A DNA stretch of 52,092 bases from Candidatus Nealsonbacteria bacterium RIFCSPLOWO2_01_FULL_43_32 (GCA_001819335.1 MHMH01000015.1:1-52092); one strand, 5' to 3'. Shown: positions 308-5,290, counted from the stretch's first letter. The notes: generated by a model not told the origin, from the letters alone. Numbers and translations are program-made.

Positions 308-904
308 ATGAAGTACGGTGAACTGAATCTAGGACAGGTGGAGGCGGTGGTCAATAAGCTTGGCGGCATGGAAGGCGTGAGAATGTTTTTGGCGGGTGAA
401 TTGGTAGTTAAGGAAGCGGAACGGAAGTTTTCCACCTGGAAAACCGTCAAACTCGGGACCGGACTCAAGTCCGCCGACGATTTCCGCCGCACCCTTAACG
501 CTGGCGGAATCAAAATCAGCGATTGGGCCAACGATATTCTCGGGAAACCTGCTTTTTCGGTGGCTGCCGAGGCAACAGAAGTTGACCTAATTAAGGTCAC
601 GGTTGCCGAACTCGGTTTCAAGAAGGGTGCCCGGCGCGACCAGATCTACGAACGCGCCAAAGAGCTTGGACTTCAACTTTGTCCGCCAGAAGTCGGCCCG
701 CAGTTGCGTCTGCAGTACCAGGACCAGCCGAATAACGAGTGGATTCTCGTCGGAATGGAACCGATTGCCGGTTCCGGTGGCAACCTGCGCGTGTTCTCTG
801 TGGAGCGCGATGGCTCGGAGCTGTGGCTCAGCGGCGATTGGGGCTATCCCGACGGTGTCTGGGGTCCTGACGATCGTTTGGCCTTCGTCTTCCCCCGCAA
901 GTAA
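308..904 (+). CDS. DGR target (variable) protein, 198 aa, C-terminal VR; CLec-like fold inferred
   Basis: ATG at 308 follows SD GAGGAG. The longer ORF start at 203 lies inside the leader hairpin. The last 46 codons are the VR. No obvious signal peptide or TM segment. Confidence 0.9.
   Translation: MKYGELNLGQVEAVVNKLGGMEGVRMFLAGELVVKEAERKFSTWKTVKLGTGLKSADDFRRTLNAGGIKISDWANDILGKPAFSVAAEATEVDLIKVTVAELGFKKGARRDQIYERAKELGLQLCPPEVGPQLRLQYQDQPNNEWILVGMEPIAGSGGNLRVFSVERDGSELWLSGDWGYPDGVWGPDDRLAFVFPRK
764..900 (+). repeat. DGR variable repeat (VR), 137 bp
   Basis: Ungapped alignment to 1259-1395 with 18 mismatches, all opposite TR adenines. Confidence 0.97.
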
Positions 905-1016: not shown

Positions 1017-1258
1017 AACAGGGATGATTTATAATTAGAATTGGATAATAGGCGAATCTGTCCGCGGTTACGGCTTCGGGCGGCCGAATTCCGGAATTAT
1101 CGCAATGCAGAATCTTGGCGGCTACGGCTTCCAAGAGCGTCATTGATAATTTCCAAAAATAAAGATACTTGGTATAAGGCGTTAGGGTATTTTAGATACC
1201 GCATAAGATGCAGCCCCGAGAGTATTCAGGGGGCAGTGGCTTAGAAGACGCTTTATAC

Positions 1259-1395
1259 ATTACCGATTCCGATGGCAACCTGAACGTGTTCTCTGTGAAG
1301 CGCGATGACTCGGAGCTGTGGCTCAACAGCAATTGGAGCAATCCCGACAATGTCTGGAATCCTGACAATCATTTGGCCTTCGTCTTCCCCCGCAA
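1259..1395 (+). ncRNA. DGR template repeat (TR), 137 bp
   Basis: Adenine-rich copy of VR with many AAC/AAT codons; 32 adenines, 18 of them substituted in VR. Confidence 0.95.
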
Positions 1396-1411
1396 CTCTC
1401 TTTATTTTTTT

Positions 1412-1439
1412 ACCCGTCCAATTAGAGACGGGTTTATTT
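1412..1439 (+). terminator. Hairpin 3' of TR (possible end of TR RNA)
   Basis: ACCCGTC-caattaga-GACGGGT followed by TTATTT; abuts the avd stop codon. Confidence 0.45.
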
Positions 1440-1727
1440 GAGAACCTTAATCCACCCCCCAAGCATTTTGCCGATTTCATTTAATTTTTCAGATATTAAA
1501 ATATATTTTTTATTGTCCAATGATTTTATCTCCCAAGCTATTTGCAGAAAGAATTTTAACAAATCTAATTTTACGGAAGCATTCTTAAGAGAAATAAGTT
1601 TTTCTAATTTGTCTGAATAGCTCGCTTTTATTATTAGTTCAATTGTTTCCAGAAACAAAGAATCAATTTTTGTTCCGATGGTGTAGCGGGAATCTTTTTG
1701 GAAATTAGGCAAGAATTCATGCCACAA
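1434..1727 (-). CDS. avd: Avd-like DGR accessory protein (four-helix-bundle family); true N-terminus probably extends upstream, see the G9 finding
   Basis: Basic helical protein with a RYTIGxKID segment and C-terminal EIGKMLGGW motif typical of bAvd-like proteins; lies between TR and RT; frame open to 1814. Confidence 0.85.
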   Translation of the reverse strand: MWHEFLPNFQKDSRYTIGTKIDSLFLETIELIIKASYSDKLEKLISLKNASVKLDLLKFFLQIAWEIKSLDNKKYILISEKLNEIGKMLGGWIKVLK

Positions 1728-1747
1728 TTTGTAAGCCCGAACTAGTT

Positions 1748-1784
1748 TTTGGATTAAGCTTAATCCAAAGGGGCTGGGGGGGGG
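1748..1784. repeat. Perfect 22-bp palindrome (1748-1769) and G9 homopolymer (1776-1784)
   Basis: TTTGGATTAAGCTTAATCCAAA is its own reverse complement; nine consecutive G follow shortly after. Confidence 0.9.
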
Positions 1785-1806
1785 TATTACCGGTAAAATT
1801 ATTATT

Positions 1807-2802
1807 ATGAAAATTCAATTGGCTCATAATTTCGAAGATATTGTCAGTTTGGATAATTTACTTGAGGCCTGGCCGGAATTTTTAAAGGGAAAAAGAGAGA
1901 AAAAAGACGTTCAGGAATTTTCTTTTCGCTTAATGGACAATGTCATATCTCTCCATTATGATTTAGTTTATCATATCTATAAACATGACGGCTATCAAGC
2001 GTTTAGCATTCAGGACCCAAAACCCAGGAACATTCATAAAGCGAGCGTGCGGGATAGATTGCTTCATCGCGCCATTTACCGCAGACTTTACCCGTTTTTT
2101 GACAAGACATTTATCGCCGATTCTTTTTCCTGCCGCATCGGCAGGGGCACTCACAAGGCACTGGATAGATTTCGTTTGGTTGCTTTTAGGGCTAGTGAGA
2201 ATAATACCAGAACCTGCTGGATATTGAAATGCGACGTTAAAAAATTCTTTGCCAGCATTGACCATGGCATTTTAATAAGCATCCTGCAAAAATATATACC
2301 CGATAAGGATATTTTATGGCTTTTGGGAACGGTAATAAGCAGTTTTCCCGGCCTTGGCCAGAAAACAGGACTGCCGCTCGGCAATTTAACTTCGCAGCTT
2401 TTCGCGAATATCTATATGAATGAATTCGATCAGTTCGTGAAGCACAGACTGAAAGCAAAATATTACATTAGATATGCCGACGATTTTGTTTTACTCTCGG
2501 AGAGCAGGGCTTGGCTAGGGGCGCAGATCCCAGCCATTGATAATTTTTTACAAAGAGAGCTGAAGCTTACTCTGCATCCCCAAAAAATTTCCATCAAAAC
2601 GCTTGCTTCCGGGGTTGATTTCCTCGGCTGGGTGCATTTCTCCGATTATAGGGTATTAAGAACCAGTACAAAGAAAAGAATGCTTAGAAGAATCCGAAGA
2701 CGCTCGTCCCTGTCAACAGCTAATTCTTATTTGGGGCTTTTACGGCACGGCAGTACCTATAAATTACGGGAAGAAGTTTTAAAACAGCATTTGTCGAATT
2801 AG
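1807..2802 (+). CDS. DGR reverse transcriptase, 331 aa
   Basis: YIRYADDF catalytic motif, GLPLGNLTSQLFANIY (DGR-type), LKCDVKKFF, DFLG; no maturase or endonuclease domain. Confidence 0.96.
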   Translation: MKIQLAHNFEDIVSLDNLLEAWPEFLKGKREKKDVQEFSFRLMDNVISLHYDLVYHIYKHDGYQAFSIQDPKPRNIHKASVRDRLLHRAIYRRLYPFFDKTFIADSFSCRIGRGTHKALDRFRLVAFRASENNTRTCWILKCDVKKFFASIDHGILISILQKYIPDKDILWLLGTVISSFPGLGQKTGLPLGNLTSQLFANIYMNEFDQFVKHRLKAKYYIRYADDFVLLSESRAWLGAQIPAIDNFLQRELKLTLHPQKISIKTLASGVDFLGWVHFSDYRVLRTSTKKRMLRRIRRRSSLSTANSYLGLLRHGSTYKLREEVLKQHLSN

Positions 2803-2804
2803 AT

Positions 2805-2833
2805 AAAAGTCGGCTTGGAAAAGCCGATTTTTT
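2805..2833 (+). terminator. Intrinsic terminator after RT
   Basis: AAAAGTCGGCTT-ggaa-AAGCCGATTTTTT. Confidence 0.8.
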
Positions 2834-2863: not shown

Positions 2864-5290
2864 ATGAACTCTTATAATCCTCAGGAAATAGAGCGAAAAT
2901 GGCGGAAGATTTGGGAGGAAAATAAAACCTTCCAGGTTGATTTAAAACATGCCAAAAATCCCTATTACAACCTGATGATGTTCCCTTATCCTTCGGCCGA
3001 AGGCCTGCACGTGGGAAATGTTTACGCCTTTACGGGTTCGGATATCTACGGCCGTTTCAGAAGAATGCAGGGGAACGATGTTTTTGAGCCGATGGGCTTT
3101 GACGCTTTCGGCATCCATTCGGAAAATTTTGCCATTAAAAAAGGCATTCATCCCAAAATTTTAATTAAAAAAAATACTGATAATTTTCGCGAACAGCTGA
3201 AAAACCTGGGTTGTCTTTTTGATTGGGAGCATGAAGTGGATACTACCCGGCCCGAATATTATAAATGGACCCAGTGGTTGTTCTTACAGCTCTATAAGGC
3301 TGGTTTGGCTTACCGGAAAAAAGCGCCGGTTGATTGGTGCCCTTCTTGTAAAACTGTTTTAGCTGATGAACAAGTTATTTCTGGTCAATGCGAAAGATGC
3401 GATTCTGAAGTTATCCAGAAAGAAACCGAGCAGTGGTTTTTTAAAATTACCGAATACGCCGAAAAATTGCTGAAAAATCTAAATACGATTGATTGGTCGG
3501 AAAGAACAAAAATTACGCAGAAAAATTGGATAGGCCGAAGCGAAGGAGTAAATTTAAAAGAAAAGGTGAAAGGTTTAAATATTGAATTTGAGGTTTTTGA
3601 CACTGTTCCCCAAACTTTCCTTGCTCAGACTTTTACCGTTATTGCTCCAGAACATCCATTAGTTAAGGAGCTGGTAAAAAATACAAAATATGAAAAACCA
3701 GTGATGGAATTTATTGAAAAAATCAAGAGAAAAAGAATAGAGGCACCGAACGAAATAGAAAAAGATATTGAAGGGATTTTCATAGGCAGATATATTGATA
3801 ACCCCTTTGGGACGGGCGATTTACCCATTTGGCTTGCTTCTTATGTAATTGCCGGATATGGAACAGGGATTGTCAACTGTAGCGCCCACGACGAACGCGA
3901 CTTCGCTTTCGCTAAAAAATACAATATTCCTTTAAAATTGGCGATGTTACCTTCCGATAAAGAATTATCCGAAAAAGTGAAGAATTTCGAAACCTGTTAT
4001 CATCATGCTCCCGAGGGAATTATTCAAGAACCAATAGAAATGAGGGGTATGACTTGGGAAAAGGCGAGAGGGCCTATTATTGAACATATTGAGAAAAAAG
4101 GTTTTGGTAAAAGAGGAGTCAATTATCACCTGCGCGATTGGCTTATTTCCAGGCAGAGATATTGGGGTCCGCCAATCCCGATTATTTATTGCGCAAAGTG
4201 TGGCGTTGTCCCCGTGCCGGAAAAAGACTTGCCGGTATTATTGCCCGACGTTGAAAATTTCAAGCCCAAAGACACGGGAGAGTCTCCTCTGGCTTTGGTC
4301 TCGAGTTTTGTCAAAACAAAATGCCCACAATGCGGAGGGCCTGCCCGGAGAGAAACGGACGTCTCTGATACTTTCTTAGATTCTTCATGGTATTTTTTCC
4401 GTTACCCTTCGTCTGATTTTAAAAATAAACCATTTGACGAAAATATTACAAAAGAATGGCTGCCCGTTGACATGTATATTGGCGGTCAAGAACATGCTGT
4501 ATTGCATTTGCTTTATACCAGATTTATCACGATGGCCTTAAAAGATTCTGGTTTTATTGATTTTGAAGAGCCATTTAAGAAATTCCGAGCTCACGGTCTT
4601 TTGACTAAGGGCGGAGCCAAGATGTCCAAATCCAAAGGCAACGTGGTCAACCCGGACGATTACTTTAAAAGATTCGGGGCAGACACCTTGAGAATGTATT
4701 TAATGTTTATCGGTCCCTTTGAGGCGGGCGGGGATTGGCAGGATAGAGGAATTATTGGGATTTCGAGATTTTTAGAGAAAGTTTGGGCGCTCCAAAGAAA
4801 ACCAAAAACAGAAATTGAAACCCCAAAAATAGAAAATTTATTACATAAAACAATTAAAAAAGTTGACCAAGATTTGGAGAATCTTCAATACAATACCGCC
4901 ATTTCCGCTTTGATGATTTTAGTCAATGCCTTAGCAGAAATCCCGCAATTGTCAGTAAAAACCTACAAAACGCTTTTATTGCTATTGGCCCCCTTTGCGC
5001 CCCATATTGCAGAGGAGCTTTGGCGCTACTTAGAACCTGGTTCTAAACAGTCTATTCATGATCAAAAATGGCCAGAATACGACTCCGAATTGATCAAAGA
5101 AGACACGATTACCTTGATTGTGCAGGTTAACGGCAAGGTCAGGGATACTTTAGAAGTTAAAGCCGGCATTTCCGAGAGCGAGGCCAAAGAATTGACATTA
5201 AGCCAAAAAAAGGTTAAAAACTATATATTGAACAAAGAGATAAAAAAGATAATTTTCATTAGGAACAAACTTATAAATATAGTCGTATAA
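2864..5290 (+). CDS. leuS: Leucine--tRNA ligase
   Basis: MFPYPS-GLHVGN (HIGH-like), KMSKS, DWLISRQRYWG, C-terminal QVNGKVR. Confidence 0.97.
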   Translation: MNSYNPQEIERKWRKIWEENKTFQVDLKHAKNPYYNLMMFPYPSAEGLHVGNVYAFTGSDIYGRFRRMQGNDVFEPMGFDAFGIHSENFAIKKGIHPKILIKKNTDNFREQLKNLGCLFDWEHEVDTTRPEYYKWTQWLFLQLYKAGLAYRKKAPVDWCPSCKTVLADEQVISGQCERCDSEVIQKETEQWFFKITEYAEKLLKNLNTIDWSERTKITQKNWIGRSEGVNLKEKVKGLNIEFEVFDTVPQTFLAQTFTVIAPEHPLVKELVKNTKYEKPVMEFIEKIKRKRIEAPNEIEKDIEGIFIGRYIDNPFGTGDLPIWLASYVIAGYGTGIVNCSAHDERDFAFAKKYNIPLKLAMLPSDKELSEKVKNFETCYHHAPEGIIQEPIEMRGMTWEKARGPIIEHIEKKGFGKRGVNYHLRDWLISRQRYWGPPIPIIYCAKCGVVPVPEKDLPVLLPDVENFKPKDTGESPLALVSSFVKTKCPQCGGPARRETDVSDTFLDSSWYFFRYPSSDFKNKPFDENITKEWLPVDMYIGGQEHAVLHLLYTRFITMALKDSGFIDFEEPFKKFRAHGLLTKGGAKMSKSKGNVVNPDDYFKRFGADTLRMYLMFIGPFEAGGDWQDRGIIGISRFLEKVWALQRKPKTEIETPKIENLLHKTIKKVDQDLENLQYNTAISALMILVNALAEIPQLSVKTYKTLLLLLAPFAPHIAEELWRYLEPGSKQSIHDQKWPEYDSELIKEDTITLIVQVNGKVRDTLEVKAGISESEAKELTLSQKKVKNYILNKEIKKIIFIRNKLINIVV

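Follow-up and report, generated by a model that had tools for sequence, protein, structure and literature searches.

In the diversity-generating retroelement (DGR) of phage BPP-1, the accessory gene avd, the template repeat (TR) and the reverse transcriptase (RT) gene stand in the order avd-TR-brt, and Avd is needed together with RT for cDNA synthesis. Bacteria of the candidate phyla radiation (CPR) have a different arrangement; in a published survey, 90% of the DGRs from these bacteria had architecture B3, TR-(avd)-RT (Wu et al. 2018, NAR 46:11, PMC5758913). In the poly-G/C contingency loci of Campylobacter, Neisseria and Haemophilus, which undergo translational phase variation, a homopolymer of 8-14 just past the start codon is polymorphic in length, and ON and OFF alleles coexist. 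Here, we describe a DGR that occupies the 5' 2.8 kb of a 52-kb contig from Candidatus Nealsonbacteria bacterium RIFCSPLOWO2_01_FULL_43_32 (GCA_001819335.1, MHMH01000015.1:1-52092; the whole stretch of 52,092 nucleotides (nt) is called the window), and in which avd carries a simple repeat just past its start codon. We propose that this repeat is a slipped-strand phase switch on avd that is OFF in the window copy, and we put the probability of this reading at roughly 0.6.

The element is an ordinary CPR-type DGR of architecture B3, made up of a target gene with its variable repeat (VR), a TR, a reversed avd and an RT. Indeed, B3 as presented in Wu et al. 2018 (PMC5758913) has the same order and strands, a CPR-like host and adenine-specific mismatches, and the layouts do not differ. 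With BPP-1 (bAvd, 4DWL and 8UB7) the window element shares the RT, the Avd four-helix bundle, the TR/VR pair and a hairpin after the VR. It differs from BPP-1 in that avd runs on the opposite strand, lies between TR and RT and overlaps RT head-to-head; in that the region 3' of the TR is antisense of the avd 3' end, with a terminator-like hairpin; and in that avd has a predicted disordered N-terminal extension, which holds the simple repeat. An earlier note on this DNA, made from the sequence, had given the same gene order and strands, TR(+), avd(-) and RT(+), with which the coordinates, the repeat pair and the profile matches all agree. It had also called this layout non-canonical, a description that stands only against phage BPP-1, whereas the B3 survey describes the same arrangement in CPR bacteria (PMC5758913) and our related loci share it. 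Among 80 loci whose RTs are 59-69% identical to the window RT, all 77 with room for it have a minus-strand avd immediately before RT (the other 3 have <100 nt upstream of RT).

The likeness to contingency loci includes the mismatch repair genes, since MutS and MutL were not found in the 88%-complete genome of the window host. The gated gene would, however, be part of a hypermutation machine and not a surface or restriction gene, the host belongs to the CPR, and the tract falls within the 5' region of a second, divergent gene, RT, as well. Another comparison is with hifA and hifB of Haemophilus influenzae, where an intergenic (TA)n repeat between divergent promoters alters promoter spacing. There too a simple repeat marks the meeting point of two divergent genes, and a single tract could thereby act on the pair; the window repeat, in contrast, lies inside the avd coding sequence, and any effect on RT is conjectural.

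While the reversed-avd layout is already published and ordinary for CPR DGRs, no description of a repeat in avd was found. Literature linking DGRs with a repeat switch was likewise not found in a search that covered neither Paul et al. 2017 nor the supplements of Wu et al. 2018. The article text of Wu et al. 2018 (PMC5758913), its supplementary tables aside, contains no mention of an avd repeat, of frame problems or of a post-TR hairpin in the part available, and the terms avd, homopolymer and frameshift are absent from the Roux et al. 2020 preprint.

The features at the junction of TR, avd and RT are, in window coordinates:

1259..1395, plus strand: TR, the 137-nt repeat partner of the VR
1412..1433, plus strand: 7-bp hairpin followed by TTTATTTG, directly 3' of the TR and abutting the avd stop codon; likely the 3' end of the TR RNA
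1434..1775, minus strand: avd body frame, a predicted four-helix bundle, with the stop codon at 1434-1436 and TTG 1727 as the first canonical start
1776..1784: simple repeat, G9 on the plus strand and C9 (Pro codons) in the avd sense, at the junction of the ATG and body frames and 22 nt upstream of the RT ATG
1785..1827, minus strand: 5' part of avd as read from the ATG (MSQLNFHNNNFTGN...); in the window copy it is not in frame with the body
1807..1827: head-to-head overlap of the avd and RT starts, 21 nt
1807..2802, plus strand: DGR RT from ATG 1807, 331 amino acids, intact, with LGNLTSQ and YADD motifs

The avd start codon proposed in the earlier note, ATG 1827-1825 on the minus strand, is present and does overlap RT by 21 nt, being the reverse complement of the RT His7 codon. 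It is, however, out of frame with the avd body, since 1827 to 1434 spans 394 nt. From ATG 1827 the frame reads MSQLNFHNNNFTGNTPPQPLW... and ends after 36 residues, the Avd body is in the +1 frame, and the two frames meet at the C9 run. The interval 1396-1827 given in the earlier note is not an open reading frame (ORF). The body frame, 3' of its upstream stop, has no ATG, GTG or TTG before TTG 1727, and a start there would give a 97-amino-acid product that has lost most of helix 1 and the invariant Tyr33. Thus, no intact avd ORF with a start codon was found in the window, and gene callers give only remnants of 92-97 amino acids. Database homologues of 128-132 amino acids nevertheless start M[ST]QLNFH...PPP...LSLIQKLV, which corresponds to the two frames of the window joined. 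Protein P0001 (131 amino acids, from a 1,790-nt contig) shows full identity to these joined frames, with ...NTPPPSPFG... at the join, and is in frame; judging from the protein alone, P0001 would correspond to a C11 (ON) allele.

The avd body has no internal stop, and the minus-strand ORF matches PF22296 (bAvd) with an E value of 2.3e-19 and 70.3 bits (cut-off 40) and NF033474 (DivGenRetAVD) with 80.4 bits, a marginal score at a cut-off of 80 that nonetheless spans profile positions 1-104, which is the whole profile. The profile match begins 14 residues before TTG 1727. An AlphaFold (AF2) model, built from a full-length Avd homologue and 50 relatives, has a mean predicted local distance difference test (pLDDT) score of 84.8, helices at 20-42, 45-70, 74-100 and 106-130, and disordered residues 1-17. 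A Foldseek search with this model returned the Avd chains of 8ub7 together with 4dwl among its top 7 matches, all with probability 1.00, and superposition on the 8ub7 Avd chains gave template modeling (TM) scores of 0.75 (query length) and 0.88 (target length) with a root-mean-square deviation of 1.5. A PDB search by sequence only was weak (4dwl, E 0.05). Collectively, by profile and by predicted fold, the minus-strand ORF is a genuine Avd, and the suggestion that it is bAvd-like is borne out by PF22296, by NF033474 and by the four-helix model.

The repeat lies between the avd ATG and helix 1, in the 5' coding region, and its unit length is not a multiple of 3. Among the 77 related loci, 64 have a poly-C run of 6-14 at this site (at least 8 in 62 of the 64), and 10 have another repeat there, namely (CA)8-16 (n = 6), (CT)7-10 (n = 2), (GA)10 (n = 1) and a heptamer present six times (n = 1). 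Mono-, di- or heptanucleotide repeats thus occupy the site in 74/77 loci. Three-frame translations of the 10 loci with non-C repeats put 3 in frame and 6 out of frame, with 1 ambiguous, while the 3/77 loci that have no repeat at all are in frame in every case (3/3). That the site can hold one repeat or another, as long as the unit is not divisible by 3, points to selection for slippage and not to selection for a G/C-specific signal. The diversity of repeat types also makes homopolymer sequencing error insufficient as an explanation.

Other roles for the tract were considered and set aside. A role of the G run as a Shine-Dalgarno sequence for RT is at odds with its spacing, 13-24 nt from the ATG in most cases, and with its replacement by other repeats in 10 loci; polyproline stalling as its purpose is contradicted by the non-C repeats at the same site in those 10 loci. 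Long-range pairing of the tract with the conserved MLGGW motif, whose G-rich codons lie close to the 3' end of avd, was also rejected, no conserved partner being found. The motif is encoded in the window by GGGGGGTGG (CCACCCCCC on the plus strand, 1452-1460), and its Gly codons are GGG in 19/134 cases (67 loci), much like the Gly codons of RT (187/1068).

The tract also varies in length on otherwise identical DNA. G9 is found on otherwise window-identical DNA in the window itself, in a metagenome contig (L082) and in contigs from runs X2 (1371 nt) and X11 (258 nt), and run X4 yielded G10 in a 920-nt contig at a depth of 17.3, with 0 other differences from the window over 1515-2400; the contigs of run X8, the remaining run compared, did not span the tract. 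The lengths for the window element are accordingly 9 and 10 from DNA and 11 as deduced from P0001, and only 11 is in frame; in the G10 allele, the third frame meets stops before the tract and so is closed. A second pair of loci (L023 and L024) has identical flanks and carries C10, which is out of frame, and C9, which is in frame. ON and OFF alleles are therefore both present, the ON allele of the window element being the one deduced from the protein.

The window tract stands out in its genome (552 kb, 23 contigs, found in groundwater and soil metagenomes), where G9 is the longest G/C homopolymer and G/C runs of at least 7 are depleted (7 observed versus 19 expected). The second-longest G/C homopolymer is a G8 at G000:C23:3024-3031.

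These alleles bear on whether the frameshift is an assembly or sequencing error, or avd a dead gene. G runs of at least 9 are hard for short-read platforms, and the called products of the window sequence are remnants of 92-97 amino acids, as either account would have it. The G9 is repeated, however, in independent contigs (window, L082, X2 and X11), the body is free of stops and matches the Avd profile along its whole length, and avd is out of frame in 41/48 loci from many studies, a pattern that also recurs at C8 tracts and at dinucleotide repeats. In addition, TR and VR of the window (137 nt, 87% identity) differ only at TR adenines (18/18 mismatches), and this adenine-specific divergence of the VR is the footprint of past DGR activity, though the avd copy is out of frame. 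Sequencing error is unlikely as a general explanation of the tract, given the dinucleotide and heptamer repeats and the depth-17 G10 contig, and we regard error or gene death as a highly improbable cause of the frameshift.

Frame statistics were drawn from the 48 loci (window counted) that combine a C run with an ATG at +21. Of these, 7 have ATG and body in the same frame, 19 fall in the +1 and 22 in the +2 class, and four further loci have an in-frame GTG upstream of the tract, giving 11/48. The 7 in-frame loci compare with 16 expected, a deficit that is not significant if the four GTG loci are counted, and our claim is limited to this: the in-frame class is not enriched among these 48 sequences. 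No stop interrupts the ATG frame before the tract in any of the 48 loci; of the other two frames, in the part beyond the RT overlap, one is open in 36 loci and the other in 23. Between the tract and helix 1, the body frame is likewise open in 48/48, compared with 37 and 41 for the alternatives. Coding sequence thus appears to flank the tract on both sides. Three loci (L026, L081 and L045) have ATGs in two or three frames upstream of the repeat, and more than one class of tract length could be ON in them.

The absence of enrichment for in-frame loci (7/48, or 11/48 with GTG) would also fit a different explanation, according to which Avd is made at any tract length from a start 3' of the repeat, either the helix-1 Leu TTG or a near-cognate codon. 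On this view, the segment from ATG to repeat would serve as a short upstream ORF or an untranslated leader, and the repeat would adjust the expression of avd or RT without gating it. The Leu codon at the start of helix 1 lends itself to this, for it is TTG in 30, ATG in 2 and GTG in 1 of 62 loci, so that 33/62 are start-capable, and TTG is enriched relative to its 17.7% share of Leu codons elsewhere in avd. The predicted disorder of residues 1-17, outside the bundle, and the many Avd versions of 103-109 amino acids in databases agree with such a start as well. Against it, the window has TTA at this position, and initiation at TTG 1727 would come at the cost in helix 1 and Tyr33 given above; 13-14 of the 41 out-of-frame loci are without any such start; the ATG frame is open to the tract in all 48 loci; and in each of the 3 loci that lack a repeat, the body shares its frame with the upstream ATG. 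Moreover, no Shine-Dalgarno sequence precedes the helix-1 TTG, because the C run occupies that place. We consider a downstream start an unlikely account of the locus.

That all three frame states are common while the body is intact and conserved could instead reflect programmed recoding, through RNA polymerase slippage or ribosomal +1/-1 slippage on the CCC Pro codons, in which case every DNA length would give the same small fraction of full-length Avd and Avd would be kept scarce. Slippage of tRNA-Pro on CCC-C and of polymerase on long homopolymers is known, and a +1 slip on CCC-C in the window would yield ...NTPPSPFG.... Such recoding is much less plausible, though, at the 10/77 loci with (CA)n, (CT)n, (GA)n or the heptamer, repeats on which DNA slippage is classical, and alleles of different length are present in the DNA itself. 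For these reasons recoding appears distinctly unlikely.

According to the phase switch that we favor, replication slippage would alter the length of the repeat (here C9, C10 or C11), and each change in length would move the conserved ATG 1827 into or out of frame with the Avd body. Full Avd of 130-132 amino acids would come only from tract lengths of 8, 11 or 14. The C9 copy of the window would be OFF and lack a canonical rescue start, its sole canonical start, TTG 1727, giving 97 amino acids. Since Avd is required for cDNA synthesis in BPP-1, and by analogy presumably in the window DGR as well, the repeat would turn targeted hypermutation on and off in a stochastic, heritable and reversible manner. 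The rate of switching, the loss of Avd from OFF alleles and the effect on mutagenesis are what we infer from this arrangement.

Several points weigh against the phase switch. The RT His7 codon partly dictates the avd ATG at +21, so that conservation of this ATG is no proof in itself. The codons ATT and ATA are present in the body frame upstream of the tract and might initiate weakly; a start-capable helix-1 Leu codon, present in roughly half of the loci, could allow a short Avd to be made whatever the tract length, which would leave the switch leaky. Finally, long G runs are error-prone in short-read data, and the tract lengths are read from assembled contigs.

A wider proposal, to which we give somewhat less than an even chance, is that in CPR bacteria, where mismatch repair is apparently missing, the hypermutable repeat at the head-to-head avd/RT junction serves as a stochastic master switch for targeted hypermutation, so that a mutator would itself be under a mutable switch. 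Most cells would be kept OFF, and rare ON cells would diversify the target protein. The repeat precedes the RT start by 13-24 nt in most loci and for this reason may gate RT also. If the master switch is real, the differing repeat types at the site would reflect selection for mutability itself.

Unchecked mutagenesis of a working binding protein is costly, so what is at stake is the mechanism by which DGRs are restrained. A heritable, reversible switch on an accessory protein, if true, would amount to population-level restraint in the CPR, the largest natural reservoir of DGRs, and it would account for the frequent annotation of avd in these genomes as a truncated 'four helix bundle protein'. 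Surveys that score the completeness or activity of DGRs from called ORFs will misjudge such elements.

The earlier note had sought control of the element in antisense pairing or polymerase collision, arising between a TR-RT read-through transcript and the avd mRNA, or between the divergent avd and RT transcripts. Part of this has a basis in the anatomy. The avd start lies in RT, and the avd promoter would therefore lie there too, as had been suggested; the 21-nt overlap of the starts would place each promoter within the other gene and make the 5' ends complementary. Promoter-like hexamers do occur on the minus strand inside RT (1998-1970), but the number of promoter-like sites, 7 versus 5.0 +/- 2.2 in shuffles, is not above chance. 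Obligatory read-through from TR into RT, antisense to avd, is opposed by the terminator-like hairpin at 1412-1433. An equivalent hairpin with a T tract lies across the avd stop codon on the plus strand in 56/74 related loci, compared with 1/74 on the minus strand and 1/74 in shuffles, and this conserved structure 3' of the TR should stop TR transcripts; the TR RNA therefore probably ends before crossing avd. As the main form of control, antisense pairing or collision seems improbable. It is conceivable alongside a repeat switch, with which it is compatible, and is not needed to explain the anatomy.

In related loci such as L066, L040 and L051, the codons of the Avd C-terminal tail (...K-T-P-A) are, read on the opposite strand, the left arm of the conserved plus-strand hairpin. 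A single stretch thus does double duty, coding for Avd on the minus strand and forming a terminator-like hairpin on the plus strand.

The remaining parts of the layout recur across the related loci. A TR-like repeat ends beside the avd stop codon on the plus strand in 64/65 loci with enough flank, mostly within 0-40 nt, and the avd stop codon of the window, at 1434-1436 on the minus strand, lies exactly 38 nt past the TR end, just as the earlier note had it. The VR is found 360-680 nt upstream of the TR-like repeat on the same strand. At least 80% of the TR/VR mismatches are at TR adenines in 62/65 loci, out-of-frame loci included, and by this sequence signature the related DGRs have been active. 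The 21-nt avd/RT overlap recurs in 49 loci (window counted); within it, the avd ATG complements the RT His7 CAT, and the RT ATG complements the avd His7 CAT. The RT start at ATG 1807, read from the ORF, is as previously placed. RT matches PF00078 (E 2e-26), its scores against group II intron and retron models are below the cut-offs of those models, and its LGNLTSQ and YADD motifs are hallmarks of DGR RTs. Only 5 among 60 host relatives match the region, and the distribution of the element is thus patchy. On contig C4 of G019, a relative from the same order, three RT/avd pairs (L086, L089 and L092) have junctions with G7, with G10 and with no G run of at least 7.

Upstream of the TR, the window contains the following features:

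308..904, plus strand: DGR target gene, 198 amino acids from ATG 308, with a GAGGAG Shine-Dalgarno sequence 7 nt upstream
764..900, plus strand: VR, at the 3' end of the target gene and ending 4 nt before its stop codon
975..1006, plus strand: GC-rich 12-bp hairpin followed by a T tract, 3' of the VR; target-gene terminator and/or DGR hairpin

A longer ORF, from ATG 203, is likewise open; the target gene has no match in Pfam or NCBIfam. Directly 3' of RT lies a leucyl-tRNA synthetase gene, with 2810-2827 (minus strand) and 2864-5290 (plus strand) noted there; the DGR sits among housekeeping genes, and no phage genes adjoin it in the first 7 kb.

The Rfam RT-7 RNA (RF03028) was considered for 1106-1201 (plus strand), just 5' of the TR, and rejected as a weak partial match, with 26.8 bits against a gathering score of 116.8 and only the 5' hairpin covered. 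Among related loci, RT-7 was found in 0/10 at E <= 0.1 and in 0/20 at the gathering score. Between the target gene and the TR, a direct repeat, GCGG(T/C)TACGGCTTC, occurs at 1064-1077 and 1118-1131, 54 nt apart, and its second copy forms the hairpin matched by RT-7. Finally, 4-5 CCCTTGG-like words lie at 905-965, between the target-gene stop codon and the terminator hairpin, and occupy the region expected for DGR recognition elements 3' of the VR.

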